Under the pieces are notes generated by a model. The model was not told where the DNA came from. It was given only the letters and a program-made list of their open reading frames with translations, and made no database searches. Shown piece by piece: positions 716 through 64,000 of a stretch of 64,000 nucleotides of DNA (positions within the stretch are counted from its first letter, which is position 1; each line of letters begins with the position of its first letter). A program made the translations under genes and the position numbers. The DNA is from Yuukianura sp. NJ FZ-2021. Its lineage: Eukaryota. The stretch spans positions 9,796,001-9,860,000 of the forward strand of contig CM102287.1 in the NCBI GenBank assembly GCA_046563655.1, given 5' to 3'.

Positions 716-1258
716 CTCAAACGTATTTTCTGGTAAAATCTGAATAACATTTCCACGTAGATTCAAACTCTCTAATTTGCTCATTCCACTCAACGTTAGA
801 TTCACTAAAAAGTTGTGACTCAAGTCAAGACTTTTACAGTTTTCCAAATCGGACCAACTGACGAATGTCGTGAGATTGTTGTTGCTGAGGTCAAGGAAGG
901 TCAATGACCTCTCTGCAAGGTCATTCTCGTTAGGTTGGACAAAAATTGTGCCAATTTGGTTATGGGCCAATACGAGTTCTGTCACTCCTTGTCCAAACAG
1001 TAGATCATGCTCTCTTATTCCAATGAACAATGTAGGTAAAACGTAGTCACGCAGTTCCAATCGGTGACCTCTGGAATCAAGGTCGTGACCTCCAAAACTT
1101 AAATTTAGCGCTGGAAGAACTGTGAGGAGACGATCTCCGATGCATGTAGTAGTTGCTGTCGTTTCAGGACAAAAGCACTCTGTAGGGCATTCTCCGCTTG
1201 TAGTTGACCTGATGAGGGTCACAACCACAAAGGTCACAAGCGTGACCTCTGAGGCCAT
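716..1258 (-). CDS. First coding exon of a signal-peptide leucine-rich-repeat protein (candidate 2mit ortholog); rest of gene lies left of the window
   Basis: ATG at 1258 gives MASEVTLVTFVVVTLIRSTTSG signal peptide, LRRNT cap CPTECFC, then LRRs (LVLAHNQI, LDLSNNNL, LDLSHNFL, LNLRGNVI); donor GAG/gtaact at 715. Confidence 0.85.
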
Positions 1259-4024
1259 TTTGGTCACTTCACAATCCTGCTCACAACTGTTTCACAAATG
1301 TTGTGAACAATGAGAAGCAACAGGCTCGAACAGTAACAATAACAGTTTGAAGTAGAAATCTGTTCCTTTGTTGAGAGGCGGAAGGGGAGAAAGCAATTAG
1401 TGTTTGAAGAGAAAACAAAAGGTGAAAGTTCTATTGTTCTTTCGCAGCGTTTCTCTTTTGTTTGATTTTGAAATTCCCGCGGGGCTGGAACTGAAACAAA
1501 GTGAACTTGGCTGCAGCGTTTTCCCTTTCCAACTGAGAGCGAAGTTCTAAGCTGCAGCGTCTGAGTTGAGTTTTTGGCCAAACCAGCGCCGGCGTTGTTC
1601 TTACTTTTTGTGCAGAGGGATTTTTGGAGGCAGTGTGCGAGTGAAGTTGTGGAACTGGAGACTGGAGAGTCAGAAACCGGAAGTTTATAGGCACACTGGA
1701 TCGCTGGAAGGGCTGGAAGGATTGGGAGGATTAGACTTTAGTGTTTACTCAACTTACATTTGAAGTCTCCCTGTGTTAGGCTAGGCCTTAAGTCTCTAAT
1801 TATCAATTATCCACTCTCTTCTGCTCAACAAAATAAGACTAAAGTACGCAGTCTACAAAAACCTAAGCTTAAACTCTGGTTTTCCAAAATCTAAAATCTG
1901 GGCAGAGATCATTAGCTCCAAAAAGACGAACAGAATTTTTAAAAGTGTCTAGTTTTTTGTAAACTGAAAAAAAAAACAAGTCTTTGTTGCTTTAAAAGTA
2001 AAAGTTTCGCAGTGTAAAAACGTTTTCTTTGCTAAAACATCATGGTGCGAAATATAGGATTTTACAAGTTCAAAAATTTAAATTTTGATTCAAGATTCAA
2101 TTTCACAATTGGGAAATTTTAGTCGAAAAAAGTTTTTGCAATAAGCAAATGCTCTTTCAAACATAAAACTGGACTGTCGAAATCTTTTGCTAGAAAGAAA
2201 AAATTGGAATTTTTTGAACAGCGTAGGAGATGGGAGATTGAAATTTTTATGAATTTGCGAGTTTTAGTGAAAGTAGTGGGATTTTTTTCGGAAGATGGTT
2301 TTTTTAAATTTCTAAATTTAGTTGAAAGTGTGTTTTTGTGTGATTTGAAATGTTGATTTGTGTTGATTCATTGTGAAGTGTTGTATTTCTTTTGTTAAGT
2401 GCTGAATTTGCACTCCATTTGTAGGATGACAAGAGTTCCATTTTTCTGCAAACTCCTCTTCAGCAGCATCTTTTTGTGTCTTTTTTTCTTCTTCTTCGTT
2501 TCTTCCTCTCGAGTGTTGTGACACTTTTGGAATAAATCATATTTCTGATTTTTTTTTCTCTTCCTCTCTGCACTGCGTTTTTACTTTTTTGAGTTTGTGA
2601 GCTCCGTTTTTTGAAATAGGGGTCCTTCCGGATTCAGTTCTTAGTTTTTTGGAAACTGAAAAAGTTTTTGGTTCTTTGCTCTGCGGGGGTGTCTTTTGTC
2701 GTCTTCATAAATCCAGTCGGAGTCATAATCATGTCATCACTATGTTTCTACTCGCACAAATTATTACAAAATCCAACAGGAACTCGTCTTTTCTAAAAAG
2801 AAAATTCAAAAAAGAATCTTTCTGTTCAAAACACTGGGTTCACTTTTTACGGCTTTCCTAAGAAGGAAGTTTCAAAAAAAGTTAAGAGTTGTAATAACGA
2901 TAGGTCACTTCCGACGTTCTGCTACAAAATAAGGCATTTGGCAGACACTGACACGACTTTAAGTCGCCTCTAACACTCATGTCTGGTCATCGGAATGTTC
3001 AAAAGTGTCGTTCTTCCAGAAAGTTCAAAGGTCAATGACTCATTTCACATGATGTCAAGAGGTCAATGACTCAGTTTGGCGCCAGACAACTTTTTCAAAG
3101 AATTTTCCTGCTATCCAACACTAATTTAATTTTAGTTAAACTCTTCTGACAGTGGTGTTTCATCTTCGAGTGTTTTTTTTTTCGAATTTGGTTTTCCTTG
3201 TGTGCGAAACCGCAAAGCGGAAGCATTTTTGGAGATTGCAAAAAATTAGACTGGAAAACTTTTGGGTTTGAATTTCCTGTTTTGAAAAGATCAATTTGCT
3301 TTGAAGTCGGATTTTGGTGGCCTTGATTTGTTATGATTTTAGTAAATTCCAAGGTTATTTTTGCGACATCCAAGGAGGAAGATGAGCATGTGTGAGTTAG
3401 GAAAATGCGAAAGTTAGCGTAATGTTTTTATTGTGATTTGGAGATAGAGTCATTTCCTTTGTTTTTGGCTTAGACTTAAGCTGGAATGGGTCCTTTAGTA
3501 AGTAAAAGTTAAGTTGAAGTGGGCATAAAGTGGAGAGAGACAAGATGAGATTGGAGCTGGAGTGCACATTCAGCATATCCCTCTGCCCTACTTTCCTTAA
3601 CTTCTTTTAATTCATGAGAGTCCATTGTTCTAAAACCTTGGAGTTCCATCTAACTTGGACTATGGACTGATTTTTAGTATAGTCTAACATAGGCTATGGT
3701 AAAAGTATAAGTTAGGTGGAAGGAGACTGTAATTGAGCAATAATCCTGCTGGTGGAATGGGAACAATCAAATTGTCAAGAAGGAATTTATGTGTGAGAGA
3801 CTAATTAAACGTCATTCATCATCATCTGAGCAGATGAAAGGAGGGAGATTTTGAACAAAATAAATTAGGAATGGTGCAAGGAGGGGAGAGCTACTGGGTT
3901 TCAAAATGATTTTCTCCTAGACGTTTTTAGAATGAGGGTTATTAAATTTTGGCTTGAGCTTTTGTTACTTTTTTAGTAACTTTAGGAAGAAAAATCTAAA
4001 AGATTTCTGTAATTTAATTTCTAG

Positions 4025-18865: not shown

Positions 18866-21207
18866 ATGCGGGGTCAAACGAGGTCAGCCGCTCAGGTCAC
18901 CGTGTTTCTAATTTTTTGTATTGGTTTTACCCTAGGGTTCTTCAGTCCCATGTACTTTGGCTTCGACAAAGAAGGTAAAAGTGAGTCTGTTCCCAAAATT
19001 CCTGAAAGTCACTACACTTCCAGCACTGGCTTTCTCTACTCCAAGGCACCTCTGCATCTAATGCACCTTGCCAAATTCGATGCTTTCATGTTTTCCAAAT
19101 TCAAATTATACCAAACCAAGTTGAAAAGGAGGATGAAGAGACTCAAAACGTACAAAACTCAAAAAAATACACAAATCAAAGCCCAAGAAAAGTTGAATTT
19201 CAAGTTTTTTTTAAAATCTATTTTTCAAATTTTTGTTCAAATTTAGCTACATTGCCGATTTTGAGCGGAATTTGGTCAATTCTGAACGAAAAGAGGTCAA
19301 TGACCCCGAAAATTGGCAATGGGCGTTCCAAGCAAGCTCGAATCCAGCCAGAGCCTATCCGCTTCTGGCACGCATGACGTCTAACCTCCCGAAACTCTTG
19401 CAGGACATCGAAAGTGGCCTAGAGACAGGTATGATTTTATATGCAGAGGTCATTGACCTTTGACCTTTGACCTCTATTTTTGAAAATACAGATTTGATGG
19501 AAGAGATCTACCAGAAGAAAGAGCAGAATCGCCTTGACTGGCCTTCTGAGCATGACCCGGAGGTCACTCGACAAGCTTTGATTGAGCTGCCTATAGTTTA
19601 TGACATTCCGGTGACCTCGATCTGTAATGGTTCGTTTTTGGGTGACACTCCAGCACTCAAAGCAGATCATTGCAACCAAATTGCATCTACAGCCTACAAC
19701 ACAAACAAATTGGCTTCCGGTGTGCAGTGGCTCGACGCAGCTCGCAAGAGAAAAAAAGTCGAAAAACCCAAAACCGTCCCCGACGAAATTCTGAACATGA
19801 ATTACGCAACCCTATGTGCAGAGGTAAAAACAATTGAAAAAGAATTTTTTGAAAAAATTACAAAAAAAAAATCAACTGTTTCTTTAAAAAAAAAAGAACC
19901 ATCATGAATGGAAACTGTAGCAATGCAGCCAGACAACCAATCTAGATGTCGCAATTGATTTTAAAATTTCCTTGTTTTTCAAATTTTAGCATGACTTTGA
20001 ACTCGCAAACGTGACTGCCACGAAAGTGTCGGAATCGCGACCTTTGACCTCACTTTGGGAGGATGACCTTTACCCTCACAACGTTTCCTTCGGAATAGAC
20101 GATGTCGAAAGTCCACGTCTGCGCCATCTCCACATTTCACAAACTCCACAAGACCAAATCCATCCGACTGTCCGATTCTGGCAACTCTGCGCCGGCGCCA
20201 ACTTCCAAAGTTCAAAAGAACTGTCTCAAGGTCACTGTTTCCATAGCAAGGTCACTGACCCCCTGACCTCCCTCCTCCCCCTCAAGGTCGAAGTGCTCAA
20301 TCGCTTCCCCCCTGTACTCCAAATTCATGATTTCGTGGACTCATCTACCAGCTTGGCACTTATCACTCAAGCCATGACTGCAATTGAAGCTCAGAATGGT
20401 CCTGGTCAAGGTCAGAAGGCAAAAGGGGAGGAGCTTACTGCCAGTCCACCAATCCCAGCCACGCTTACAACTGATGGAATCCACGCATTGGCTAGATTTG
20501 GACCAATCACGAACCTCTGGAAGGAGTTGACGCGAGTTCCGACAGCTAAAGTGACCGAACGCCTCCATGTCAACGCATACTCTTTTGCCAACTTTGACTC
20601 AAGTTTGGACAACGTAAGAAAGTTGACCTTTGACCTTAACAAAAATTAATTTCAAAAGTAATTAAAAATTATTGTTTTTTTTCTAGTTCCCGGATTCCGA
20701 TTTCACTGAATCCCAAGTCCAACAGACTTTGAACATCCACATTTTCGTAATATTTTTTAAAATTGGTTCAAAATTTTGAAATTCAACTAGTGTTAATTAA
20801 TTTTTATTAATGTAATTCCAGTTGAATAGCATTGGGGGTGGTGGAAGGACGGTTTTCCCTAAACTTGGATTTGGAGTTGACCCCACCAGAAATTCGGCTC
20901 TGATTTGGTCACAGTTCAAGATGAACGGAGTAGGTCATCCCAATTTGTACTGGATCAACTGCCCAGTAATCGCTGGAAACAAATGGGGTAATTACAATTA
21001 CTTTAATTACAACTAATTACAACTAATTACAATGAATTACAAGTAATTTAAAGTAATTAGATCAACCCAGAGCTAATTCTCAACTTGCTTTTCCCTATTT
21101 GAACTTACGTTGTAAACTTTTAATTTTTTTGCCAGTGGCGTCCAACTACATTCGACAGGAAAGCAAAGAATTTGGATCCTCCGGGGGCAACATCTTGGCC
21201 AAATTGA
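18866..21207 (+). CDS. Prolyl 4-hydroxylase alpha-like protein, predicted catalytically inactive
   Basis: Exons 18866-19149, 19247-19428, 19492-19823, 19990-20613, 20687-20746, 20822-20987, 21136-21207. N-terminal hydrophobic segment, SNPARAYPLLARM, KVEVLNRFPPVLQIHDF, GGRTVFP, CPVIAGNKWVA. Confidence 0.82.
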
Positions 21208-21992: not shown

Positions 21993-24415
21993 ATGACCTG
22001 GACTAGTCGTTTTTGTGTCTTCGCTTTGTTAACCGCTGCAATTTTTCGGGGTCAAGGTCAGGGTGACTCGGATGCGAAAGAAACTAAAAGCGAACCAATT
22101 TTTAGCAACTTTTCGCTGTCTCCGTTTCCTTTGCAAAAATTAGTGGAATGCGAAGTGGGGATTTACGAGGCTATGAAGGTCATCGGAAGTCAATTGCGAG
22201 AGGAAGAAGCGTTGAGCCAACTTGTGTCCATGTAAGTCTTAGCAGAGGTCAAATGTCATGTTTTGCCAATTCAGAGGTCAAAGGTCACGTATTGTTAACG
22301 CAAAGGTCAAAGGTCAAAGTCTTTTAGGTACTTGGACGACTATGAAACAAGTTCCGGGAGTCTGCCAAACGACGGATTTTTAAAAGAAGACGCTGTTGAG
22401 AAAATAGTGAACAATCCACTGGCAGCATTTCGGATGCTGTTTCGCTTCGTCCGTGACCTTCCCAAGGTCATCGCAGGAGGTCACGGAATGCTGGACGAAG
22501 TGTTGTCGCCGTCGTGTGCAGTGCCCAACGAACAGGACTTAGAAGAAGCCATGGACGGCATTCTGCGATTAGCTTTCACGTATGACCTTGACCTTCTCGA
22601 GGTAATTTGACCTTGACCATAGAATTTGACCTTTGACCTGAGCTTGACCTTTGAAATTTTAGTTTTCAGAGGGTTATATCCATGGCATCATGACCCCATT
22701 TACACTGGAAGCTCGTCACGCCTTTGCCATTGGTCGTCGTGCTCTGGACCTCGGCACTTATCCAGCTCTGACCGTCGAATGGCTGGAATTGGCCAAGTAC
22801 TTGACCTCAGAGGTCAATGACTCCGGTGACCTCGGGGTGAACGACCCCGAGGTCAATGACCCCGATGAATTCTGTGAAAATGACATGGAGGAACCAGAGG
22901 TCAATGACCCCGTTTACCTCCGTGATAATGACATGAATGAACTGGACGCCCTGCTTCTCCAAGCTGTTGACACCGTGAGCTCCAACTTTTTTCTGTTCAA
23001 TTCACAATTAAAAAATTTCAAAAATTTGAAATCAAAAATTTGGGATTTTCAATTTCAGCATGATAAACTGTTCGACTCAACCACAAGTTACGCCAACACC
23101 TTTTTTGTGCGGAAGATCGTTCCGAAACCGGAGATTCCTTATGAATTTGACGGTTGGTATCGTCGGATATCCCAGCGGTCACGGGATGCTGAACGGTACG
23201 GTGGGAATCCAGGTCGTAACTACCACGAAATCAATACTTGGACACTTTGTTCTGGACAAAGTGACGAAGGTCACCAGAGGTCACCACCTTTGTATTGTTG
23301 GAACGACCTGCGCATTCCGATTTTCCCGTTTCGGATTGAGCAGTTGACTGAAGTTCCCCTGGTGATCCAAATCCATAACTTCCTGAGTCCAGTTGAAACT
23401 GACCAGTTAGTAGAAATAGCTCAACAGCACATGGAACCTTCGGTTGTATCGTCCGAAGAGGGACCAGGTCAAACTTTCCGGACAACCGAACGGACGAGCT
23501 ACACGAAGTGGCTAATCGGCTGTCCACTCTGCTTAAAAATTGAAAACTTGATTCAAACGTTCACTGACCTCCACGCTCAACATGAAACTGGACTGCAAAT
23601 TGCTTCTTACACTCCGTTCGGTGCCCATTATCGATTCCATCTTGACCAGGTACATGTCAGGTCAAAAGGTCAATCGAAAACCACATGGCTTTCGAGACAA
23701 AGAAAGTACAAAAAAAATATTGAACCGATTGGGATCCGAACCCACATTCGTTCAGACCGGGAAGAGCTCTAACCATTGAGCTATCACGTTCCAATCATAC
23801 TGGAACTGCTACCAAACGGCAAAAAATGTAGATAAACTAATTCCAGCTTTTCATTCTATTTTCAGGATGTAACGCCGCTTTTGGAGCATTCGGACGACAT
23901 GAGAATTGCTACGTTCATGATCTACGTAAAATCACTGAAACGAAAAATCAAAATTCCAAAATATGAGACTTTTTTTAAGAAATTTTTTTTTTGAAAAAGT
24001 TCTGTTCTAAAACAATTTCAACAGTTGTCGGACGTAGAGGGAGGAGGATCCACTGTTTTCCTGGACGCTCAGTTGGCCGTCCGACCGAGCAAGGGTAGTG
24101 CTGTTTTCTGGTATAATTTGGATCCATACGGAGACGTTGACTTTAACACGCACCACGCAGCATGTCCAGTTTTCCTAGGAACTAAATGGGGTAAGGACAA
24201 TTTTTGAAAAAAAAAGTTTCAAAAATTTCTGAAAATTGATTTTTCAAAAATTCTTCTCAACTTTTCAGTTGCAAATAAGGTACGTTCGAAAAAATTACAA
24301 ATTTTTAAGTTTTTTGAAAACGTAGTTGAACAGTTTTTTGCTTGCCTTTTAGTGGATTTGGAGTGACGACCAATTTGATAGAAGGAGATGCCCTCCCAAG
24401 CTTACCAAAAACTAG
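21993..24415 (+). CDS. Prolyl 4-hydroxylase alpha subunit (catalytic residues intact)
   Basis: Exons 21993-22231, 22328-22601, 22663-22974, 23059-23649, 23866-23925, 24025-24190, 24269-24279, 24353-24415. Signal peptide, NNPLAAFRMLFRF, HYRFHLD (HxD), RIATFMIYLSDVEGGGSTVF, HAACPVFLGTKWVANKWI. Confidence 0.92.
23721..23791 (-). pseudogene. tRNA-derived pseudogene or SINE head in a P4H intron
   Basis: Minus strand GAACGTGA-TA-GCTCAATGGTTAGAGC (A box, perfect D arm)...TGGG-TTCGGAT-CCCA (B box, T arm)-ATCGGTTCA then a T run; anticodon arm does not pair. Confidence 0.7.
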
Positions 24416-24713
24416 AAATTTTGAAAAATTTGTAAACTAAAAAAAAATTTCGAAAAAGTACATGAACAAAAAATATTTTATTCATTTCCTGTTCGTACCA
24501 TCATCAGGTTTGACTTAAGAAATGCATAATGCTGCTACGAAATTTTTTTAAGTTCCACCGTCTTTTTTAATTCGAGCGCGTCAAATTTTGATAATCTACT
24601 CAGAAAATTTTGATTTTTGGGTAAAACTCACATAGTTTCGTCATCTCGTTTGTCTAGTTACTGATTAGCATTAAGGGCTCCCTTAAAGGGCTTTACAAGG
24701 TCAAAGGTCACGG

Positions 24714-27600
<2,887 letters not shown>

Positions 27601-38970: not shown

Positions 38971-40460
38971 TCATCTGTAGTAATCGTAGTAATCGAAGGC
39001 ATGAAGAGGTGGTTGCATAACTAAATTCTGCCAAAACCTGTTAAAAACGTCAAAAGAATTAAGTCAAACGTCGTACTCATGCGTCAAAAGCAATGAAAAC
39101 TCTCAAGGGTCAAATGTGTAAACTTTCGAAATGTCAAATTTTGAAATTTTATATTTCAAAATTGTTAAAGTTTTCAAAAAATCAAATTTTGTTACCTCCA
39201 AGGGGACGTCATGCACATAGCCCTTGACCTTGGGCAGGGGAACTTCCGAAGGCACTCGGCAAACTGACGATCACATTCACACAAATGCGTTCCACAAATT
39301 CCTTTCCAGCCACGGTAGTCACCGACTGTTTCCAATTTTCAAAATTTCAAAAATCTAAACTTTTTTAAAAATTTGACCTTGACCTTGGTGGCTTACCACA
39401 ATGTGGACGTCCGTCAGCACAGGTCCAGTAGTATGGCACAAAGTAAGTGAGGAGTGGGGGACATTGAACTTGATTGTAACACCAGTCATGTTGTTGACAG
39501 CAACTAAAAAACAAAGGTCAAAGGTCAAGGTCATTGACCTGCAGTGTTGAGGTAAAAGGTCATTGACCCACCTGTCGATTCCATCCACGCTGAGTCCAGA
39601 TCCGAGGAATCCGCAGTAGCATCCATACCCTTTGTATGCTAATGGATTACACCCTGTAGCACACACTACCATATCGTACAAGTGAACTACGCTCCGCCGT
39701 GACCTCTGTGACCTCTCCGGGTCACTTCCATTTGTTCCCGCTTTTGAATGTTCCCGCTCCAAAGTTTTTTGAATTTCCGCCTCCAGTTGACCTTCTACCG
39801 TTTCTTGTGTGACTTCGCCTGAAAGTAAAAAAAAGTTACGACTTTTTTCAATGTTGAAAATTCAAGTGACCCGAAGGTCACACGAGGTCATTGACCTCAG
39901 AAAAATTAAGTTAAATGAAACGGTGACATTTCAAAAAAGTTTGTTTCCCGCGGCGAGACAATGGAAAGGAAAAGTGACAGGTATGTCTTCTGGTAATGTA
40001 ACAAAAATTACGCCAATTGTCACTTTGTTGAAAGTGAGCACTTCCTAGGCACAACATGATCACTAAAAAGTAACAATTAATCCGCGCATGCTCATGTCAC
40101 CCTCGCAGTTTGCCAAAAAATTGCAACTTTCTAGCAACCATTACCGAAATTCCCCAATTTTTGCACATTTTGCAAAAAAAAAATCAAAATCAAAACAGTG
40201 TTAACGCCAGTTGAAATTTCAAGCGAAAATCGTGCGGAGAATTTTGTTATATTTTTCAGATCGGCTGGATTTTTAGCAGTCTGATTGCCTATAAAAGTTT
40301 CGACTTGTTGCGAATTGTGGAAATTCGTAAACTAATCAATTTTGGCACATATTTTTTGCAAACCTTGTCCAGACGGCCCGACGACTCCCAGGAGAACAAC
40401 GAGGAACAGGCATGTGAAGAATGATGAGTCTCCGGTCACTTTTAGTTTCATTCCCACCAT
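38971..40460 (-). CDS. Secreted phospholipase A2 (group I/II/X-like fold)
   Basis: Exons 40460-40364, 39818-39572, 39503-39397, 39325-39196, 39037-38971; signal peptide, furin-type site RSRR, Ca loop YGCYCGFLG, active site CCQQHDWCY, LCECDRQFAECL. Confidence 0.92.
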
Positions 40461-42845: not shown

Positions 42846-43632
42846 TTATGGGTCAATTCCCGTAACTGCCGGGCTAACTCCGTTTTCATTCCTGTCGCGT
42901 AACTCCGCCTCTTCTTGCAATTGACCTTGACCTTGACCTCCTGACCCCTCCCCTGGCTTGCTACACCTCACCCCCACAAAGGGAATGTAAATGCAGTCAT
43001 ATGGGATGGCCGACAGAGGAAGAGTGGATTGACCCAGCACAAGGTCATTGCCCTCCGCAGTTGACCCGGCAACAATTGCAGTCGGTTGCCAATACGTTCT
43101 TTTCCCGCCAAATCTCGTTCCGGGGTAAAATCTCCGCTCACCAGCCGACCTTGCTTGGATTGTCCGCAGTCCGCTTGTCCTCTGCATCACTCGGCTCGAC
43201 ATTTCTAAGGGGTAAAAAAAATCATTATCGTCAACCCCTTATCGTGAAATCTTTATCGTTAACCCTTTATCGTGAAATCTTTATCGTTTGTGAAATCTTT
43301 ATCGTGAATTCTTTATCGTTAACCCTTTATCGTTAACCCTTTATCCTGAAGTCTTTATCGTTTGTGAATTCTTTATCGTTAACCCTTTATCATGAAACCT
43401 TTATCGTTAACCCTTTATCATAAAGTCTTTATCGTTTGTGAAATCTTCATCGTTAACCCTTTATCCTGAAAATCTTTATCTTTAAGCCTCGACCTTTGAC
43501 CTCACCTCCTGAGTCTCTCTTGCCATAGCGTGGTCCAGTATAGACTCCACTGACGACGGAGACCATCACACAGCAAATGAGACCCAACAGCAGGAACGTC
43601 ATGGGGATCGACAGACTCGCAGTGGACGTCAT
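42846..43632 (-). CDS. RYa: RYamide (luqin-family) neuropeptide precursor
   Basis: Exons 43632-43506 and 43204-42846; signal peptide followed directly by VYTGPRY-GKR, second peptide RR-FYPGTRF-GGKR, C-terminal Cys pair DCIYIPFVGVRC typical of RYamide/luqin precursors. Confidence 0.88.
43225..43480. repeat. Minisatellite of 14-18 nt units (TTTATCGTTAACCC / TTTATCGTGAAATC) filling the RYamide intron
   Basis: Directly visible, roughly 17 units sharing the TTTATC core. Confidence 0.95.
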
Positions 43633-46600: not shown

Positions 46601-46857
46601 ACTTATTCGTCTCAAAACCCCAAAAAATGTTAAAAACCGTAACTTCCAACGTAGATTCTGCAGAGGCGGTGCCAAAAAAAATTGTCGCACAACATTGTAG
46701 CTTTTTAAATTCAAAATTATTTGACTAAAAGTTAAAATTTAATTCCTACCGAGCTTAAAAATATTCAAGTTGTAAATTACTCAGTTTCTTAAATCGAAAC
46801 GAAGTTTCAAAAATCCCTATCATTTTCAAAAAACAATTTCTAAAACTAAAAATTGTT

Positions 46858-49800: not shown

Positions 49801-52800
49801 TTAACTTTTAGCTTGTTCTTGACCTAACGATGATCAATGTTCTGCTTCTCTTTTGTAAATGGATCCTTGGAGGCAGATTTTAAAAGTTGACTTTTACAAA
49901 AACCAAAGTTGGCACAGACTAATCTAATTCCACTGACTCATGGTACAAAATTAGTCATTCCTTATTCACAGCCCTTAAGGGGTCTACGCAGGGACAAAAC
50001 CTTTGACTTTTTCAAAAGAAAAACTAAAAAAAAAAAGTTAAAATTTTCAAAATTTCAGCTTCTGCTTGAGCAAAGCTGTTCAGAAGTGGACTTCATCAAG
50101 GAAATTCTTGATTTAAACCACACTGGGAGGAAATGTCGTCTTGTGGTTATGATTGGGTTCTTGCCAAATTCAGATCCACATAGAACTGAAACTTGAGTGT
50201 CTAAAAAGTTAGAACATAAAAGTCTAATGTTTAGACTCCTAGAAAACACAAAGCTAAAATCTAGCTATAACTTATGCTCAACTAAAAACCAGCAGAGCCC
50301 TACTAACTCATCCCACACTTTTTATAACTTACAAGACAATGGTCATAACAAAAGCATTTTTAGTGTCACCGACTCAGCAATTCTGTTCACTCTTCCATCT
50401 CATACCAAGAAAAAAAAATGTATCACCACACAATTCTTAATCATCACATTACAATAAAGTCATTAGCTCAGCAATCCTACATTCTAGAAGCGCCACAATT
50501 TAAAAAAAGTAAAGGCGTGACCTTTGACCTGCCCTTCAAATGTGTTTGAAGCGTCTAATTTGACTCAAATTCCCCAGAAAGTACAAAATACCCCATATTT
50601 TCGGTCAATTTTCAATTTTTTTTTTGTAAAAATCCTACCGAAATTAAATAAAAACTAAAAACTTGCATTTTTTTAACATAAACCTGCTTTTCTCATCTCT
50701 CTATTGTCTGATTTGTCTGAAATTGACGAAGTTGGAGTTGAAAATGTTTTTTTTTCGTAAAATTTTTATGAAATTTTGAAAAATCCACTGAATTCGTTCG
50801 CGAACTACACGATACAACTGCAAAAATTGCATTCTTTTTTAAAACTTGGAAAATTGGATTTCTGTTTAAACGGCTTCGAAGCTATTCACTTCGAAAATTA
50901 ATTTCGAAAAACTAAAACTAACATTCCAAAATTAGAGCAACTTGCGTTATTCTTCGGAAAAACTTGTATTCACATTTAAAAAGTTCAATTAAGGAGTTGA
51001 ATAACTTGAATTAACTCACCAATTAAACTCTCATCAGGGTCATGCGGTGCAACGGAAAGTTTTGTAAGTAGTCGAAAGAGTAGTGGCAGCACATCTAGAT
51101 TTTCTGTTGTTTTTCTAAACGAAGGGAGACATGCTGGCCGAATCAATCCCCAAATTCTCATTAGAACTATTAATTCTCTCAGCGTTCCAACAGCCTTCGA
51201 GTCTCTGCAAACCTCCCACTGCAAAAACAATAAACACTTAAACTCAAAATAATTAAAATTTCAATCTCAAACTAAAATTTCAATCTCAAATTTTACATTG
51301 TTTCCAAATTAATTGTTTTTCCTAAAAACTTTTCCAGGCTCCTCCCACGCAGTCACATCGCAACTTTTTCTTAGAAAAATCAATACTTTCAATTTCTGAA
51401 TCCATTAAAAATAGAGCCGTAAAAAAGTAATCAGGAAAAAGCGTTCCTTGAGTCAACATTGTTTCTCTAAAAGTGGACACGGTGGGTATCATAAAATGTA
51501 CACCGCGGCGGTGCTGCTTTTGTGGTGGATCCACCGCCGCGGTCACAAAACATGTTAAAATGGACACCGTGTTTTTAGCATTAATTGAACACGAGCCCCA
51601 ATTTCGCATGAAACCAAGTCATCATCGCCCACAACGCAATCACTTCGGCCATAAAATGTGGCAAATGAAACTATAAACACGGTGTTCAATCACGCCTTCA
51701 CAGAGTTAATAGTCCATAACTCTAAGCTAACTTAATTAATTATATTATATTAAAATATATTAACATGAAAATTTTAGTTAAAAAATTATGACACTTACGC
51801 CAGGAGCTCTGGAGTGTCTTAGATCGGGTAAAATTGCGAGTAGTTTGACCGAGAGATCGGCACACCATTGCAGAAATTGCTGCAGCGATTGCAGCAATGT
51901 TGGTTCTACAGCATACTCCTTCGCTTCCATATTTAGCAGCACTTTGTCAACATCGTGCAGCGCTTCACCTTTACTGCCAAGTAGATCTAAAATTTTCAAA
52001 AAAAAAATCAAAATTTTGAAAAACCAATTTTCAAAAACAACCCTGAACAATGTGAAGTGGATTTAAGTTATCGAAACCTAAAAATTCATGAAAAATTGAA
52101 AACAAAAGATGTTCATTTTTTGTTTTAAACGGTATTTTCGTTCAAAATTTTGAAAAACTAATTACTTGAAAGTGCTTCTGCTGGACCACGGTCATGGCTG
52201 GACAGATTTCTAGGCCTCAACAGCGCTTTGAGTGCGCCTGAAACGAGATGCAGAGTCAACAGAGTTTGCTGGTCATTCGTCCGTGTCACTCCGCCAGAAC
52301 CCAACCTGTGACCAAAAACTAATTAAACTCTTGACCAATCAAATTCAAGCTTCTTCTCAGCCAATCAGATTCTGAGAATCAGCGATTATGCCAAGCGATT
52401 TATTACCTGTGAAGGGCCGCTTTGATGACGAGCATCCTCGTGGCAAAGTGACCTTGAACTGGTTGTGGTTGTCTTGCAAAAGTTTCGCTGAGTCGATCGC
52501 TGATACTTTCAATCAGCGATGGCCTCAGACACATCATGATGTCCCACGGATCCAGACCTCCCATCATACTCAATTCTATGAATGCTGTAGCAGTTGCTGC
52601 AAAAATTTCAAAAATTACCATTTGTAACCAACTTTTTAGCAAAATTTTGAAATTTTGAAAACATTTCTTACTTGCGTCAATACTGGGATGGATTTTGTAC
52701 AAATGGAGTTGTGACTTGGAGTCCATGGTGAGTAGAAGTGACCCACTCCATGTAAATTCCATGGCCACAAAGGGCCAACTTTGTGCTGCCGAACTTTGAC

Positions 52801-55800
52801 CTTGACCTTGACCTTGGAGTCTCATTTGCTTTGCTTCTGGAATGTCATCTGGGTCACGCTTGATTTGCACGAGAGGATCCACCGCTGGAGTGCTTCCTGT
52901 CAGCAGCCCAACCTGAAATTTCAAAAAAATTGTGTTTAGAACAAGAATTGCCAAGTTACGAAATTTGGACATTGGAAATACCCGAAATACGACAATTCAT
53001 GGTCTAAATTTGCAAAATTTTTGCAATATTTTGCAAAAATTCCAATCACGTAACTTTCAAACCTGACCCACATTGGTTCCAGGAAAGTCACAGGAGTCAT
53101 AGCCTTCCAGACACACTAGAGTGTCCAGAACATGCACAAAATTTGGCAATCCGAACGAAATTTGACAAGAAACAAGAATGACAACAAATTGTTCAAAAGT
53201 GGAACAACGAATTAATTACTCATTAGGAATTTCACAGTTTCAAATGTAACCGGGTCACTGCTGACCATTTAAAAATCAGCGCCACGAAGCCTAATTAACT
53301 CATTCGCTTTTTAGTTAATTAACTTTAACTACAATTAACAAAAAATTGAACGAAAAAAAATGGCAAGAATTCCGATTGGTTCTGCCGGCTCTCCAGTAAG
53401 CTCAACAGTTTAAACTTTGACCAATTTTTAAAAGTGTTTTCAATTTTTTGAAGTTCAAAATTTTGAAATTTTTTGTTCTAAAACTTTTTTACACTTAGGT
53501 CATGCCTTCTATGAACATGAATTCGTTTTTGACCAAAGAGACGATTGCCCAAGGGCTGCTGGACGTCGCCCTATTGGCCAGTAATGTCGCTCAACTCAAG
53601 TATGTCATGTCACTTGGCCCAACTGGTCCAAATGCACATCCATACTACTATCCCATGGTAGTTCTCATTTGGCTCTCAATTGCTTTACAGGTAAAGGTCA
53701 AAGGTCATATTTTCAAAAAAAAAGTTTCGAAAAACCAAAATTTTGATTTAGGGGTCAGTCGGACTCTGCCTGATTCTGATGGGAAAGAATCAAGTGCAGG
53801 ACGGGGGGCCTGGAACTAAAGCGGAAGTTTTGAACAACGTAATCACAGCGCAAGTATTTCTCATCACCGTGATCAACGTTCTCATTTCGTCGTTTAACAT
53901 TGAAGACACAATTCAGCGTTCGGGAAAGTTCGACGACTGGATTCGTGACGGGAACAACACGAAGTACGTTGAGAATTGCCCATGTGTCGATCCACTACGA
54001 ACTTTCCATCAGTCGGTGTCTCAAAATTACAAAGTCCATTGCCATTAAAATTCAAAATTTTAACTGTTTTTTTTTTCTAAAATAAATTTTCTGAGCTAAA
54101 CATCCACTATGATCTAGTGAAATCCGAACAATGAGGGGTCGAATTTTGAAAAAATTGCGCCTGGCGTCATAAAATTACAAAGTACATAACTTTGTTTCAA
54201 ATTTTAAAAACTTACTTGTTGAAAGTTGTCTGTGCGAATAAAGTGAAGGTTTCCGTTAGCCAATGAAATTGCAACAAGCGGTTGAATTGTGTTTGAGATT
54301 TGTTGGGTCATTGTTGGTGACGACTGGAGCGACGCTGGAGCCGAAGCGGAAGAGTTGGACAGCGACGGAGTAATTGGAATTCCGAGGGAACAGAATTGTT
54401 CAATCGGTGACTGAAACGAAATAGACTGCGTCTGCTGCCAAGACTGAAAGTCAAAAATCAAAATTTTAAAAAAATTATCAATCTAAAATTCAAATTCAAA
54501 GTTGTTTGTGTACCCAACACTGTGGAGGTTCGGTTCCGGACGCTTGGAATCTGGATTTCAAGGGCGCTGGAAGCGACAGTAGTTCGTACAAGTACAAGTG
54601 ACTGGAGAATGGATTCTCATTATTTTTCAGCGCTACGAGAATACTGTTGGTTTTAATTTTGGACAAAAACTTGATGCTGGAAATTGAGTAATCTGGAAAT
54701 TCAAAATTCAAAGTTACAAATTCAAAAACAAAATCAGTTTACCTAGAGGTAAAATTAACTGCAAATGTGATACCGTACCGGGCATGTTTGGAAGAAAGAG
54801 TGAGTGGCCTGCAAGTACTTTGATTTCAGCTTTGTCACGACTTGACCCCACAAGTGAAACGTTGACACGACTGACTTTAATAGGGTGATTGACCTTGCCT
54901 GAACTACAAGCTACCAAGATTTCACCTCCTAGAATCACAATTAAGTAATTGATTAAGTTTTTAATTAATTAACATTAAGTATAATTGAAATACCTTCGCC
55001 ATAGGCCATGTCTGCCAGTAGAATCTGACTTCTCAGGGGGATAATTTTTTCTGATGCGGTGATTGCCGTGAGTGGATCGTCGGGTGATCGTATAACAGTT
55101 CCTAGTAAACCTGTTCCTGTGACCAAGATACTGCCTTGTAAAGAACTTGTGAATCCTCTTCCTCGACGAATAGCTCTGACTTCATACTTTTCAGTATACA
55201 AAATGCTGTCCAACTTGTCTGGAATTAGACTCACCTACAAAACATTTTATCACAAACTATTCAGTAATGATCGAAGTCCTGAAGCAATTTACTTGTCTTG
55301 GAGCAGTTAGCCAACAAGATGTGAGAATCGGTTCTCCCCGGAACTCTCCTGAGTAAAGGACACACCACTTGTTAAGTAACTCTTCAACCATTCCAAATAC
55401 TTCGACGTGCCCATCTTCTGAACCAATCAAAATTTGTACTCCGGATGGATCCCAGTGCAAATGAGTAATTGCACATTCACTCCGTTTTACCCTGAAAACG
55501 ACATTCAAAGTATAAAGGATAAAGCACTTCAGAAATCAACATTTAGCTGGTTAATTTTTCGGATTAGCAGAAGAATTTACAAGTGACAGTTCCATGGCGT
55601 ATTCAAATCGGCAACGAATACATATGACCCTGTCCAGGTCATTCCATCCACACTTTGCTTCTGTTTTATCTTCGATTTGGACGATGTATTCTTCGTACTT
55701 AAATCAGTACAGGAAGAGAACGCTAGTAGATTCCGAACAGATATGGAGCATATCGGTTTGCATCCATCGTTCAAGTGTCTGAAAAATTTTACGAAACCAA

Positions 55801-55914
55801 AAATATAAAACGTCATATACCGGTTCTTAATTGGACCAAAAAATTTGACCTTTGACCTTACCTATTCAACTCCGACGATAAGCCAGGTTGTTTTACTTGA
55901 TAGAACAGTTCCAT
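46858..55914 (-). CDS. MED16: Mediator subunit 16
   Basis: Many phase-consistent exons from MELFYQVK (55914) through VFVADLNTPW, ITHLHWDPSG, LDPWDIMMCL, LQSLQQFLQWCADL, LRELIVLMRIWGL, DDCCLLPS, to KACNRCGC...WDNRWLKSCPCGGNW (46858). Large introns 54215-52913 and 51019-48052 carry nested genes. Confidence 0.92.
47391..47530. repeat. 20-nt period tandem repeat, 7 copies (CATTTCCCRCTTCAAMTTAA-like) in last MED16 intron
   Basis: ATTTCC recurs every 20 nt from 47392 to 47512. Confidence 0.9.
48930..49776 (-). CDS. Orphan single-pass membrane protein nested on the same strand in a MED16 intron
   Basis: Exons 49776-49758 and 49672-48930; MGNTETHHSYH..., TM FLYASLGFAGIVFLLLVIGFWW, basic stop-transfer RKAKQK, Tyr-rich tail, GHPGHGH repeats; in-frame TAA upstream of the ATG. 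Confidence 0.78.
51477..51688. repeat. GC-rich nested inverted repeat, possible MITE or transposon-end remnant
   Basis: ACCGCGGCGGTG (51502-51513) pairs perfectly with 51532-51543; ACACGGTG (51477) pairs with CACCGTGT (51565); 51561-51574 pairs 13/14 with 51675-51688. Confidence 0.6.
53360..54048 (+). CDS. Ninjurin family protein, antisense inside a MED16 intron
   Basis: Exons 53360-53395, 53499-53690, 53752-54048; TKETIAQGLLDVALLASNVAQLKYV, LIWLSIALQ, LNNVITAQVFLITVINVLISSF are ninjurin hallmarks. Confidence 0.92.
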
Positions 55915-60709: not shown

Positions 60710-61312
60710 TCACTTTCCAACTGGTAGCAGGTCACAGTCGCACGCCTAATACAAAAAGTAACATAAAATTAGTAATTGTGAGGGAAAACCTTCAGTTTAG
60801 TGAAGTCAAAAATTTGAAGTCAAGATTTGTTGGAATTTTTTTTTTGAAATTTTGAAAAAATTTGGATTTTTTTTTTGAAATTTTGAAAAGTTTACCAATC
60901 CTCCGTCACCCGTTTGACACAAATAGTAGCAGATGTAGTCCCAGTCTGGTTGAGGTGTCGTTGCAACAGCAGGAGTCGGTAGTCCGTCTGTCCAAGCTAT
61001 GTCGCCTGACCCTGACATGTCATCGTGACCTTGACCTTGACCTTGACCTTGACTGTGACCGTGACCGTGACCTTTGTGTTGTTCATGCCACAGTTCGTGT
61101 TCTATCGGATCATAACCCGGCTTCATTCGGTGTTTCTTAGGCGGAGGAACTCCGTTTCCACCATGCTGACCTTCCATTTGACCTTTCTTCGGAATACTTC
61201 CGGAAATGCCCGAACCGATTCCATCGTACCGATTCGTGTTCGCTGGAACAGCGATGGCCAGAATCAGCACAACTGATGCTGGAATGACTAAGTATTTTAC
61301 TGGTCCAAGCAT
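60710..61312 (-). CDS. His/Gly-rich secreted protein with C-terminal four-Cys module
   Basis: Exons 61312-60896 and 60745-60710; signal peptide; HKGHGHGHSQGQGQGQGH; DWDYICYYLCQTGDGGL/ACDCDLLPVGK stop. Confidence 0.78.
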
Positions 61313-64000
61313 TTTCAAAAAACTTAAATCTCAAATTCTGTTAAAACTAAACTCGCTATTTTGGAAAAAGAAGACGTTTTACAAATCCACCGCTGAAATT
61401 TTTTAATTTTGATAGATTTTCGAATTTGGAAGATCTTCAGCTGCAGAATTTTGATTGTGGTTGCAAGGATTTTGGGTTTGCGAATTTATAGATTCGATTT
61501 CCATTAGAGTTTATCAAATTTTTTTAATCTGAAAAAACTTTTTTCACTGAAATCAAAATGCGTTTGTTGGTTTTGCAAATTTCCAAAAAATCGACAATAT
61601 TTACTTTCGTAATGGACGTTCAAATGGTAAAAGCAAAGTAAAAGCAAATTTACGTCAACTTCAAATTTTTTCCAAACAGAAAAAAATGAATTTTAGTAAA
61701 AATTCGTCATTGACATATGTAACAGTTGTTCAAAAATTCAAAATTTTCTTTCTTTGCTGAACCTTCTACACACAGGTGAAGTAGTAGTCTGTAGGTTTTG
61801 ATGTGAGATGGAAATGACTTTTTCTTCAAAAAACAAAAATTCGAAACTTTTTTTAATTTTTTTTCTCGAAATTTTGAAACTTTGTTTTTGAAACAGAAGT
61901 TAGAATAATGTGCCCTGTTCCACGTGCCAAGGCCACTTGAGTATAGGAATTGAGGTCACTTGGAGCTTTTCTAAGGGCTTCAAAACTTTGTTCGTCTCCA
62001 TCGATTTTCCAATTTCAAGGATTCTAATGCTTTCACTTCTGCTTTCACTCCAGTACTAAAACATGGTGGAACACACCAGTCACCAAAGTTAACGCTAAAG
62101 AAAGCAGCTAGTTTTGATAGCAGTTTCCTAAGGAAGAGATTTACAACTTTCTAAATTTCTCTTCTACAAAAATCTTAGAAAAGAATTCTCATGAGAAGAT
62201 TTTGGCAAAAAATTCTAACATTTTTGCCAAAGTTCTGGTTTTAATAGCTTTTTAGAGCAAAGAAATCAAAGGAAACTTTCACTTTTCATTTTTTGTAGTT
62301 ACTCCCTCCACCCGTTTTCAAAACATTTTCAGAAAATCTGTTTTTGTTTTAGGTTTTTGTTGGCTATTTTTTGAGAATTAGTTTGGTTTAATTTCATTTT
62401 CATGTGAGTCCAAATCTGTGAAGCTACAATAAATTTTGGTTTGGAGAAAATTAAATTCCAAATTTGGTTCGTTTCAATTCACACCCGAATTTTCTCGTTC
62501 TGGACGAGAATTCCAATGAGCTGCTTTGTACTTTCCCTCTCCGTTGTTCTGCATTTCATGTCAATTTGTTTCTCTCCAGCCTTCTGTTTGAACAGAATGA
62601 CGTCCCGCTCGTTTCTGTTTGAACAAAATTGAACATTTTCTAAAAAAGAGTTTGGAACAAGAATGATTCCAGCCCACGTTCATTTCCTTTTGTAAAGGCT
62701 GCTGCTGATGGGCAGCATCTGCCTCCTCTATCTCCCCCATTCCCCAAAATCATCATTTCAAACAGATAACACTTTCACTTTCACTACGGAAATTACACGC
62801 TTCAAAACAACTTTCGCCCCACCCATCAAAGAAATTTCAAAAACCAAAAAAGAATGTCAAAATTTCAAAATGTTCATACTATACATACTACATCTAAGTA
62901 CGAAAATGGTGATGGACTACAATGAACTAGGCATAAAGAACAAAGCTAAGCTTGAGGAATTTCTGGGATTTTAAAAGGCACTAAATCCAATTTTGAAAAA
63001 AAAATGAAAATTTTGCGAACAAATTAATTTTGTTTTGAAAAGAAAGTTTTGCCAAGGTTTTCAAAAGTTTTGGACAGGAGAAAGTGAGTTAGATGGATTT
63101 TTGAACTTTTTGTGTGTTTTGTGAGCAATGAGAAATGGGTTTGTGCCAAAGTTTTGTAGAGCGAGAGAAAGTTGACCTTTGACATTTTGTGCAGATTCGA
63201 CACTGGATTGTGATTGGCTGGAAGTAAAGAATCTTGGCTCCGCCTCTTTTGCTGAATTCCGGCACCAGGGAAGCCCACTTTCTCCGCCTTTCACTTTAGA
63301 TTGCTTGGCGGGACATGCGTCTTTGGCGCGAAAGTTCGCTTTCTCCAACTTTTACTTTGAAATTCCTCTAGTGCCAGCCTCCTCGTTCCTAACATAACGT
63401 CAGTCCATGTTCGACTGGCTCCAGCATCACTTTCTGTTTCTTCTTTTCTTCCGTGACCTTTGACCTTCTTCACACTTCTCTTCTATTTCCTTTTCTTTTC
63501 TCTTTTTCTGTTCTCTTGTATCTCGACTCTACAGCCGGCTGTTGGATTCCCAGTAAGTTGAAATTTTAACTTCTTAAATCTAATTTTTAAGTTTTTTGAT
63601 ACTTAAAATGTGTTTGAACATGTTTGAACAACTGGTTTAAAAAAAATAAGTTTAAGGACAACAGTTGTGGTTTCTCAGATTGTTTTCTTGGAGAACAAAA
63701 CCTCAAAATACTTTGGAAAAAGGCACTGTCGAGTGAAATTTTTACTCTGAATTTCCAAAAAGTACGAAAATAGAAATTGCTGCACAGAGTGACCAAATGC
63801 TAATTTTTTAGCAATGAAAATAAACACAGGGATAATAAAAATGAGGGAAAACGTTTGTTCTATTGTCCATTTTTTTTACTGTGCAGTTGTTGAAGTTTTC
63901 CTTATGTCAACCTAGCACGTTTTTCGGGATGACGCTTCAAAAGTTACTATCAACAACTGCACAGAATAAAAAAATGAACTATAAAAATTGTACTTTTGTT

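Follow-up and report, generated by a model that had tools for sequence, protein, structure and literature searches.

Results

The 64-kb window, by which we mean the whole stretch of arthropod-like DNA analysed and the scope of every count given here, carries predicted genes for, among others, two P4H-like proteins, a YME1L/FtsH-like protein, Vps16, a PLA2-domain protein, Med16, a ninjurin and a WD40 protein, together with many copies of the hexamer AGGTCA, the nuclear-receptor half-site. Compartments and splice donors rest on predicted gene models made for this analysis. An exact DR1 is the 13-mer AGGTCAAAGGTCA or its reverse complement, and a slash marks a splice donor. The arrays are as follows.

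888..923: four half-sites, among them the inverted repeat AGGTCAATGACCT with a 1-nt spacer; inside or close to an LRR-protein ORF
19447..19473, minus strand: AGGTCAtTGACCT then TGACCTtTGACCTtTGACCT, middle of a 63-nt intron (19429-19491) of P4H-like gene 1, antisense; stops in all three frames
20624..20636, minus strand: exact DR1, 73-nt intron (20614-20686) of P4H-like gene 1, antisense, 11 nt past the donor
22246..22316, plus strand: five sense half-sites with two exact DR1, 96-nt intron (22232-22327) of P4H-like gene 2; 29-nt higher-order duplication
22583..22650, minus strand: six antisense half-sites, two in an exon end (spacing 6, encoding YDLDL) and four in a 61-nt intron (22602-22662)
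22802..22942: repeated GAGGTCAATGAC(C/T)C in an exon of P4H-like gene 2, encoding EVND and lying within tandem duplications of 15 and 48 nt
23659..23672, plus strand: AGGTCAaaAGGTCA, 10 nt past the donor of intron 23650-23865, which is homologous in position to the paralogue's 20614-20686
24698..24710, plus strand: exact DR1, unmodelled DNA between the ends of P4H-like gene 2 and the YME1L-like gene
26237..26249, plus strand: exact DR1, 65-nt intron (26202-26266), antisense to the minus-strand YME1L/FtsH-like gene
30254..30311, minus strand: five half-sites, 26-nt tandem duplication, within-unit spacing 10; upstream of a minus-strand secreted-protein gene (28389-30232), 20-80 nt from its modelled ATG
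35174..35205, minus strand: perfect 19-nt duplication containing two exact DR1, 79-nt intron (35165-35243) of Vps16, antisense, 10 nt past the donor; AGGTCAAAGGTCAAATTC in common with 22622-22639
36516..36548, plus strand: three sense half-sites with one exact DR1, 84-nt intron (36492-36575) of Vps16
38138..38314: two clusters (three half-sites each, including one AGGTCAtTGACCT) upstream of minus-strand gene 36774-37909, 230-400 nt from its modelled ATG
38678..38690, plus strand: exact DR1, unmodelled DNA downstream of the PLA2-domain gene
39515..39562, plus strand: AGGTCAaAGGTCAAGGTCAtTGACCT and one extra half-site, filling a 68-nt intron (39504-39571) of the minus-strand PLA2-domain gene
42922..42939, minus strand: three half-sites at spacing 6, exon; translation GQGQGQ
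43490..43502, minus strand: AGGTCAAAGGTCg, beginning 4 nt past donor 43505 (gag/GTGAGGTCAAAGGTCG), donor GT in array register
50518..50530, minus strand: exact DR1, unmodelled DNA
52797..52814, minus strand: three half-sites at spacing 6, Med16 exon; translation QGQGQGQ
53695..53707, plus strand: exact DR1, 61-nt ninjurin intron (53691-53751), beginning 5 nt past the donor (cAG/GTAAAGGTCAAAGGTCA, three units at 7-nt spacing with C-to-A in the first)
55846..55858, minus strand: exact DR1, intron 1 of the WD40 gene (minus strand), sense, 5 nt past alternative donor 55861 (tAG/GTAAGGTCAAAGGTCA)
61026..61073, minus strand: five half-sites, four at spacing 6, exon; translation HSQGQGQGQGH
63454..63466, minus strand: exact DR1, unmodelled low-complexity DNA, possibly coding

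Each of the 16 positions that the initial annotation had given for AGGTCAAAGGTCA, in either orientation, matches exactly, and a further copy at 19461, overlapping one of these, brings the total to 17; in 100 dinucleotide shuffles the average was 0.01 copies and no shuffle held more than one. AGGTCA itself occurs at 192 sites on the two strands, where base composition predicts 26.6 and Markov models of orders 1, 2 and 3 predict 29.5, 31.4 and 63.9. It ranks first among all hexamers at each of these orders (z = 30, 29 and 16), and therefore a low-order background, the explanation against which the initial annotation had proposed to check the motif, does not account for the excess. Single sites are in 3-4-fold excess, and one-mismatch variants of the hexamer are enriched at most 2.8 times, so that it is sharply defined. 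Perfect DR1 outnumber those with one mismatch (17 against 11), and 13 more carry two mismatches (shuffles give 0.03 and 2.2 for the two mismatched classes); the 37 mismatches in the 24 degenerate copies are scattered across the motif, with six each at core G2 and G3. The description of the motif as window-wide holds in that sites occur throughout, but they are unevenly spread, with hot zones at 18-24 kb and 38-40 kb and a poor region at 2-16 kb. Density varies from gene to gene; the F-box, CLIP-protease and tubulin genes, for instance, have 0 or 1 exonic site each against 4-7 expected.

Direct pairs of AGGTCA lie at spacings of 6, 7 and 10 and convergent pairs at a spacing of 7 (six times), while no everted pair in the window is closer than 9 nt; the composite forms are DR1, DR0, DR4-like and IR1. 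The arrays are perfect head-to-tail runs of 2-4 units, the unit being constantly 7 nt in non-coding DNA, and both orientations occur locally, as does mixed 6/7 spacing inside single arrays. Adjacent exonic sites are a 6-nt step apart nine times and a 7-nt step never; adjacent intronic sites are a 7-nt step apart 12 times and a 6-nt step never. Among the 36 perfect period-7 arrays in the 64 kb the unit AAAGGTC accounts for 15 and every other unit for at most two, and AAGGTC is the unit in 9 of the 59 period-6 arrays. Higher-order duplications of 15, 19, 26, 29 and 48 nt also carry the motif.

Every compartment is occupied, at 3.2 sites per kb in exons, 5.2 in introns and 2.4 elsewhere. Coding DNA holds 40 sense and 20 antisense sites; resampling of synonymous codons with the proteins held fixed (500 trials) gave 10.1 +- 2.9 (maximum 18) and 5.7 +- 2.3 (maximum 13), and coding sites are thus about four times commoner than proteins and codon usage demand. 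Sense and antisense sites stand in the same ratio as in the control, which leaves no strand effect other than that of the TGA stop, and intronic sites (20 sense, 25 antisense) show no bias relative to transcription. Motif loci as such are not richer in introns than in other non-coding DNA (17 clusters vs 50, P = 0.14). The perfect arrays do favour introns: 12 of the 17 exact DR1 are intronic by the gene models, or 13 counting one further intron; DR1 loci number 9 in introns vs 5 in other non-coding DNA (P = 3e-4); and motif-bearing perfect tandem duplications are about seven times denser there (1.51 vs 0.22 per kb, P = 2e-5), while those lacking the motif do not differ (4.65 vs 3.79 per kb, P = 0.15). 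We found no general promoter enrichment across the 400 nt upstream of 11 ATG-start models, where the density is 3.4 sites per kb vs 2.4 in other DNA and two genes contribute 11 of the 15 sites.

Short introns mostly lack the motif (45 of 59 are siteless), and the 14 that carry it, mostly 61-96 nt in length, are not longer than the others (median 74 vs 81 nt, P = 0.52). The initial annotation had placed many copies just after splice donors. Our models put donors at 19429, 20614, 22602, 23650, 35165, 53691 and, on the minus strand, 43505; for the last of the listed donors the modelled site is 55896, with a GT at 55861 as a possible alternative. The closeness stands, since in 11 of the 14 introns the first site is no more than 25 nt from the donor, but a special link to the donor is not supported: because these introns are short and the branch site and pyrimidine tract occupy their last 25-35 nt, such closeness is expected, and it is mostly the geometry of 60-100 nt introns. 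In three introns, those with donors at 53691, 43505 and 55861, the GT of the donor falls in the register of a sense array.

We found no long repeat family around the arrays in the window, and none there extends beyond the motif. Motif-masked flanks (+-120 nt) of 48 multi-site clusters gave 76 similar pairs, physically overlapping neighbours included, vs 129-202 in 10 random control sets, which bears out the earlier remark that flanks are unrelated; they share no transposon or satellite consensus in the window, and no consistent terminal inverted repeats or target-site duplications were seen by eye. We count three exact copies of the 18-mer AGGTCAAAGGTCAAATTC, spread over two unlinked introns, while another intron holds a copy with one mismatch, and introns 22602-22662 and 35165-35243 have about 40 nt in common from the donor onward. 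The two P4H-like paralogues are anciently diverged (118 identical of 586 aligned columns), and at one shared intron position each has an array about 10 nt in, the two being oppositely oriented; at least that intron therefore predates its array.

Discussion

We tentatively propose, with a confidence a little short of an even chance, that the AGGTCA arrays are a lineage-specific micro-repeat family, spread by copying at the DNA level and filtered by reading frame. The initial annotation had offered a self-propagating micro-repeat as one of two alternatives, and this one fits better. Perfect DR1 outnumber those with one mismatch and mismatches reach core G2 and G3, which points to decay of recent copies and not to constraint; AAAGGTC dominates the period-7 arrays and larger duplications carry the motif; and synonymous sites show the excess on both strands. 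The recurrence of the 18-mer at two unlinked introns argues for dispersal of ready-made arrays, and the restriction to 6-nt steps in exons and 7-nt steps in introns for a frame filter. We also count in its favour the strand balance of intronic sites, the unshared flanks and the fact that introns with sites are no longer than the rest.

The repeat unit would be the 7-nt AAGGTCA outside coding DNA and the 6-nt AGGTCA within it, multiplying by local tandem duplication or slippage in units of 6, 7, 10, 19, 26 and 29 nt, with finished arrays now and then carried to new sites, and the arrays would not have been built base by base through selection for a binding site. They are strand-symmetric, and we infer that they are young and neutrally decaying and that selection acts mainly as a filter: exons would retain in-frame forms only, so that GQ, EVND and DL peptides appear where the protein is under little constraint, and in 60-100 nt introns the arrays would occupy the sole free segment, right after the donor. 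Against this model we count that neutral copying alone does not predict the intron preference, that the arrangements are those nuclear receptors use, that slippage alone leaves the inverted form unaccounted for, that the hexamer is sharply defined, and that density differs among genes.

The arrays might instead be functional clusters for a nuclear receptor of the DR1 type (HNF4, USP/RXR, Svp/COUP-TF, HR78-like) or another sequence-specific DNA-binding protein, retained by selection in gene bodies and at some promoters as regulatory or chromatin marks, a reading that we consider rather unlikely. Receptor binding is plausible. The sharp hexamer would suit this reading, as would forms that are exactly DR1, DR0, DR4-like and IR1 with no close everted pairs. 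It would also accommodate the intron preference, which other tandem duplications lack, the uneven density among genes, the dense clusters upstream of two modelled start codons (30254-30311 and 38138-38314) and the matching array positions in the ancient paralogues, and strand symmetry suits a DNA-level reader. Selected binding sites, however, are usually fuzzy, whereas here perfect 13-mers exceed one-mismatch forms and the contact bases G2 and G3 are mismatched as often as other positions. Promoters are not generally enriched, coding sites yield low-complexity peptides, and the window contains no receptor gene.

Alternatively, though we think it improbable, the arrays might be fragments of a transposable element (a MITE, a SINE/LINE tail or a composite) with AGGTCA repeats, its flanks deleted or never copied. 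The excess of perfect copies and the identical 18-mer would agree with this, and scanning metagenome contigs for the triple repeat yielded at least 120 loci, several of which (L038, L023 and L062) hold TGACCT arrays inside longer repeats whose flanks are conserved and whose unit measures about 250-300 nt; such elements therefore exist in other organisms. Those arrays are like ours in unit and in mixed 6/7 spacing (TGACCTTGACCTtTGACCTtTGACCT), but differ in being embedded in conserved units, in G+C content and in having no relation to the window, which the metagenome matches listed resemble at the arrays only (blastn; tblastx gave none). Within the window, moreover, no repeat family reaches past the motif, masked flanks are no more alike than random ones, and consistent element termini were not seen by eye.

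It is very unlikely that the arrays act at the RNA level in the splicing of very short introns, whether as an intronic enhancer, a U1 decoy (AG/GU core) or a branch-site-like UUGAC reservoir. The intronic location of 13 of the 17 exact DR1, their nearness to donors and the three donors in sense-array register are what such a role would give, but a role in RNA predicts strand specificity, which the intronic sites do not show, such arrays also lie in intergenic and coding DNA, most short introns do without a site, and intron geometry already yields the nearness. Least probable of all is that a telomerase-like activity added short interstitial copies of an unusual telomere-type repeat where chromosomes had broken, for although perfect head-to-tail arrays of a constant 7-nt non-coding unit lacking flanking homology would fit, and the rotated unit (TCAAAGG or TCAAGG) presumably resembles telomere repeats of the TTAGG or TCAGG type, a fixed template would not be expected to give convergent pairs or mixed 6/7 spacing in one array, both orientations occur locally, and no chromosome end lies in the window.

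The micro-repeat that we favour has partial counterparts elsewhere. According to Bolotin et al. (2011; PMC3252374), human Alu elements carry HNF4alpha binding sequences, a receptor-type direct repeat hugely multiplied, as we propose here, by copying and not by site-by-site selection, and the authors suggest a genome-wide pool of sites, of which some would function and many may serve as a sink. As that source presents them, the Alu sites lie inside a retroelement of about 300 nt with a consensus, are mostly imperfect and of low affinity, and have demonstrated binding (PMC3252374). The copies described here, read from sequence alone, are instead perfect consensus 13-mers with unshared flanks, strongly intronic and also in-frame in coding DNA. 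They resemble microsatellites and short tandem repeats in their head-to-tail 6-7 nt units, 2-4 copies and higher-order duplications, and a frame filter in exons is known for coding repeats. Ordinary microsatellite loci, however, have independent origins and many different units, whereas a single unit makes up 15 of 36 perfect period-7 arrays here, with inverted pairs and an excess of single sites besides. Introners, the intron-generating mobile elements, offer a parallel for a repeated sequence within many unrelated short introns, for the roughly 40-nt match from the donor between two of them and for the donors in array register; but copies of an introner match along the full length of the intron and have one orientation, while our introns have only the array in common, in both orientations, and at least one is older than its array.

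Since the unit of this proposed family is a nuclear-receptor half-site, its arrays form perfect DR1, DR0 and IR1 sequences and would probably be receptor-bound if accessible. We would take such binding as a consequence of the identity of the unit and not as the cause of the arrays.

AGGTCA sites and arrays

The exact 13-mer AGGTCAAAGGTCA or its reverse complement (DR1: two half-sites in direct orientation with a 1-nt spacer) occurs 17 times in the window, as compared to 0.01 in dinucleotide shuffles. The 16 copies listed in the initial annotation are all exact, and the seventeenth overlaps one of them. The half-site itself, AGGTCA, is present at 192 sites (87 plus, 105 minus) against 26.6 expected from base composition and 29.5, 31.4 and 63.9 under Markov models of orders 1, 2 and 3, and is the top-ranked hexamer in every model; low-order background, on which the initial annotation had let its claim stand or fall, does not account for the excess. 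The word is also sharply defined, its one-mismatch hexamer variants reaching at most 2.8-fold.

Neighbouring sites group into 107 clusters, of which 48 contain two to six sites. The preferred direct spacings between adjacent sites are 6 (12 times), 7 (18 times) and 10 (7 times), a convergent spacing of 7 is found 6 times, and no everted pairs less than 9 nt apart were found in the window. Of the 18 spacing-7 pairs, 17 have A as the spacer base. All 17 exact copies have the DR1-type structure (two RGGTCA half-sites, direct repeat, 1-nt spacer), and the arrays at the same time show the head-to-tail repetition of short tandem repeats (unit 1-9 nt), being returned by TRF with periods of 6 and 7. 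AGGTCA-type perfect arrays number 15 with period 7 and 9 with period 6; of the window's 36 perfect period-7 arrays, 15 have the unit AAAGGTC, and every other unit is found at most twice. The saturation of the window with this motif is confirmed, and it is stronger than was first stated.

Gene content and gene models

Scanned against Pfam, the window's 220 stop-to-stop ORFs of 70 residues or more show it to be a gene-dense animal locus. Its CLIP domain, together with a feature search, indicates an arthropod-like source.

Proteins and domains found in the window by Pfam
LRR protein
F-box protein
CDK-type kinase
Prolyl-4-hydroxylase (P4H) alpha N-domain
YME1L/FtsH-type protease
Beta-tubulin
Vps16
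Phospholipase A2 (PLA2) domain
Med16
Ninjurin
WD40 protein
EF-hand light chain
CLIP-domain trypsin

We take the ORF with the prolyl-4-hydroxylase alpha N-domain to belong to one member of a tandem pair of P4H-like genes. Neither Rfam nor tRNA scanning returned a match in the window, and no relatives were found by protein searches with exon translations or by a metagenome search with a Vps16 exon.

The gene models used here are predictions by a purpose-written small Viterbi gene finder, which was trained on Pfam-supported ORFs with its parameters re-estimated three times. It merges adjacent genes, and fused predictions were cut at gaps of more than 600 nt. Retaining models with a score of at least 30 left 16 models with 67 introns of median length ~82 nt, whose donors have A at +3 in 87% and A at +4 in 79%. 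There is some support for these models: profile coordinates run on across modelled junctions (e.g., ninjurin 1-58, then 57-102, in Pfam); stop codons interrupt all three frames in 16 of the 18 motif-bearing introns, and the lengths of the remaining two are not divisible by three; and the donors proposed in the initial annotation coincide with ours, with the single exception of 55861, where 55896 is modelled. We regard 55861 as an equally plausible alternative to the modelled donor.

Perfect arrays are concentrated in introns

Distribution of AGGTCA sites (compartment; sites; sites per kb; fold over local base composition). Everything else is all DNA outside the 16 models and may contain more exons and introns.
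Exons; 63; 3.2; 6.6
Introns; 45; 5.2; 18
Everything else; 84; 2.4; 6.3

Modelled introns contain 12 of the 17 exact DR1 copies, and exons contain none; a thirteenth intronic copy (39515) fills an intron of the PLA2-domain gene, which scored below the cut-off for models. Counted as independent loci, DR1 copies are 9 intronic and 5 other (P = 3e-4). Motif clusters as a whole do not follow this pattern (17 in introns vs 50 in other non-coding DNA, P = 0.14): introns are richer in arrays and not in motif loci. Motif-bearing perfect tandem duplications reach 1.51 per kb in introns as compared to 0.22 per kb in other non-coding DNA (P = 2e-5). A general surplus of tandem duplications in introns is ruled out as the cause, since all other tandem duplications are about equally common in the two (4.65 vs 3.79 per kb, P = 0.15). 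The specific intron preference of perfect arrays is real within the window, and we offer no explanation for it.

The initial annotation had placed many copies just past splice donors. In 11 of 14 site-bearing short introns the first site does lie no more than 25 nt from the donor, and in 5 of the 14 the last is no more than 25 nt from the acceptor. This bias is largely geometric, since the majority of these introns measure 61-96 nt and their 3' third is taken up by the branch site and pyrimidine tract. Introns with sites are no longer than those without (median 74 vs 81 nt, P = 0.52), and greater length as a mark of insertion was therefore rejected. With 20 intronic sites in sense and 25 in antisense orientation, the strand-specific occurrence of an intronic splicing regulatory element is not seen, which argues against any role at the RNA level. 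In three sense cases the donor GT stands in register with the array, which is suggestive and too few for statistics:

43505, donor: gAG|GTGAGGTCAAAGGTCG
53691, donor: cAG|GTAAAGGTCAAAGGTCA
55861, donor: tAG|GTAAGGTCAAAGGTCA

Other repeats are also present. Short near-palindromic motifs (TTTCAAAATTTTGAAA and variants) form a second family, which is AT-rich, makes up much of the non-coding DNA and occupies most array-free short introns, and TAATTA and TAATTAA (e.g., at 34758-34788 and 16286-16326) are the next most over-represented words behind the AGGTCA family, with TAATTA occurring 136 times vs 38 expected under an order-1 model.

Other repeats in the window
13430-13498, 39124-39182, 48672-48729 and 51989-52040, TTTCAAAATTTTGAAA-type examples, introns and intergenic DNA
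43205-43489, minisatellite with a 14-nt unit within 28-nt and 74-nt periods (TTATCGT...AACCCT), filling a 301-nt intron
47387-47547, 20-nt tandem repeat TTAACATTTCCCACTTCAAC, ~6.6 copies, unmodelled DNA

The motif in coding DNA

The modelled CDS (19.9 kb) contains 40 sense and 20 antisense AGGTCA sites. Resampling of synonymous codons with the proteins held fixed gave 10.1+-2.9 sense and 5.7+-2.3 antisense sites (maxima 18 and 13 in 500 trials), and codon shuffling gave 5.0 and 4.9. As the observed counts exceed both controls, the excess is a nucleotide-level one that affects both strands, and the resampling rules out codon usage as its source. In exons, neighbouring sites have a spacing of 6 or 12 nt and in no case of 7; in introns the spacing is 7 nt and in no case 6. 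Exonic arrays, which encode peptides such as GQGQGQ, EVND and DLDL, are found mainly in secreted or low-complexity proteins, and where 4-7 sites were expected the exons of the F-box and CLIP-protease genes have none and those of tubulin have one. The densest carriers of the motif, and two tandem duplications in coding DNA, are:

19247-20987, first P4H-like gene, 7.2 exonic sites per kb
22057-24190, second P4H-like gene, 9.5 exonic sites per kb
7768-7859, duplication of 45 nt
22838-22942, duplication of 48 nt, multiplying an EVND-encoding copy of the motif

Origin of the arrays

DR1 is represented by 17 perfect copies, 11 with one mismatch and 13 with two (background 2.2). Among the 24 degenerate copies the 37 mismatches are scattered over the 13 positions, with six each at the core bases G2 and G3. 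Three exact copies of an 18-mer, AGGTCAAAGGTCAAATTC, lie in two unlinked introns (in P4H-like gene 2 and Vps16), which are similar over ~40 nt starting at the donor, and a one-mismatch copy lies in a third intron. Taken together, the mismatch profile, the mismatches at core bases and the common 18-mer make the arrays look like recent copies from a common source in neutral decay, as opposed to sites held by selection. The most economical reading, which we favour tentatively and with slightly less than even confidence, is that the arrays are a lineage-specific micro-repeat, generated by copying at the DNA level and filtered by reading frame. Its unit happens to coincide with the nuclear-receptor half-site.

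A repeat search of the window found no long repeat family around the arrays. With the motif masked, comparing the 120 nt on either side of each of the 48 multi-site clusters yields 76 similar pairs vs 129-202 in ten random control sets, which bears out the first impression that the flanks are unrelated; inspection by eye of the 17 exact copies and 48 clusters found no consistent terminal inverted repeats or target-site duplications. With no consensus beyond the motif, the arrays do not form a transposon or MITE family within the window. Nor do they look like introners or introner-like elements, whose copies are alike over the whole intron and in one orientation: arrays alone are common to the introns, both orientations are present, and the likeness is partial, one intron pair being alike for ~40 nt from the donor.

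A link with tRNA-like fragments was likewise rejected, there being two cases with an inconsistent arrangement. These fragments (23740-23830, within the intron 23650-23865, and 17800-17835; T-arm-like GGATCCGAACC or GGATTCGAACC) were not called by ARAGORN or Rfam and may represent decayed tRNA genes or parts of SINEs. We regard interstitial telomeric repeats, with a unit equal to the telomere repeat of the species, as a very improbable source of the arrays; the window contains no chromosome end.

A metagenome scan with the triple repeat matched at least 120 contigs, and among the matches listed none is akin to the window beyond the motif. Three contigs from unrelated organisms carry TGACCT arrays with mixed 6/7 spacing, as in the window, embedded in conserved tandem units of ~250-300 nt:

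L038:2640-3330
L023:800-1480
L062:120-620 and 1200-1700

These look like a transposon- or satellite-borne version of the window's micro-repeat. The metagenome matches show only that the unit exists elsewhere, within longer repeats.

Possible functions of the arrays

Alternatively, the arrays might be functional and kept by selection as receptor-type DNA sites. The arrangements of the sites exactly match receptor elements, the hexamer is sharp, motif density varies from gene to gene and two modelled promoters contain dense clusters, all of which favour function; binding of the arrays by a nuclear receptor is plausible. A further point in favour of function is that the P4H-like paralogues, with 118 of 586 aligned columns identical (~20%) and three intron positions in common, each have an array ~10 nt past the donor of one shared intron, in opposite orientation. 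General enrichment upstream of genes is lacking: the 400 nt upstream of starts have 3.4 sites per kb vs 2.4 elsewhere, a rise accounted for by two genes, and a general promoter element was rejected on that basis. We consider selection for receptor sites unlikely as the main explanation.

A bolder alternative is that the arrays form a transposon-less, self-propagating element tied to introns, its AG|GT core becoming a 5' splice site and so seeding or remodelling very short introns, or that they are a gene-body mark read by a DR1-binding receptor. Either would account for the ~7x denser perfect arrays in introns and for some introns of 61-65 nt that consist mostly of array. The intron shared by the P4H-like genes predates its arrays, an argument against simple intron birth there, and we rate this pair of ideas as quite improbable.

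Implications

Full-text literature searches turned up no account of AGGTCA arrays in the introns of arthropods, and the unit is absent from the main text of a Daphnia tandem-repeat paper (PMC3152781) and from that of a Daphnia paper on new introns (PMC4202315). Among published cases, the nearest is the propagation of HNF4alpha sites by Alu elements, for which a receptor sink has been proposed (PMC3252374). If the pattern in the window is genome-wide, this arthropod would have hundreds of thousands of perfect receptor-consensus sites made by copying, and motif-based prediction of hormone-response elements (ecdysone, HNF4, RXR-type) would be meaningless in its genome; so many sites could titrate receptors and thereby act as a possible sink.

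The window also shows a DNA-level process that inserts low-complexity peptides, such as GQ repeats and EVND, into proteins. The concentration of perfect arrays in tiny introns, unexplained as it is, is the observation most worth pursuing, as this preference gives a testable approach to how the short introns of compact, intron-rich arthropod genomes are filled, maintained or born.
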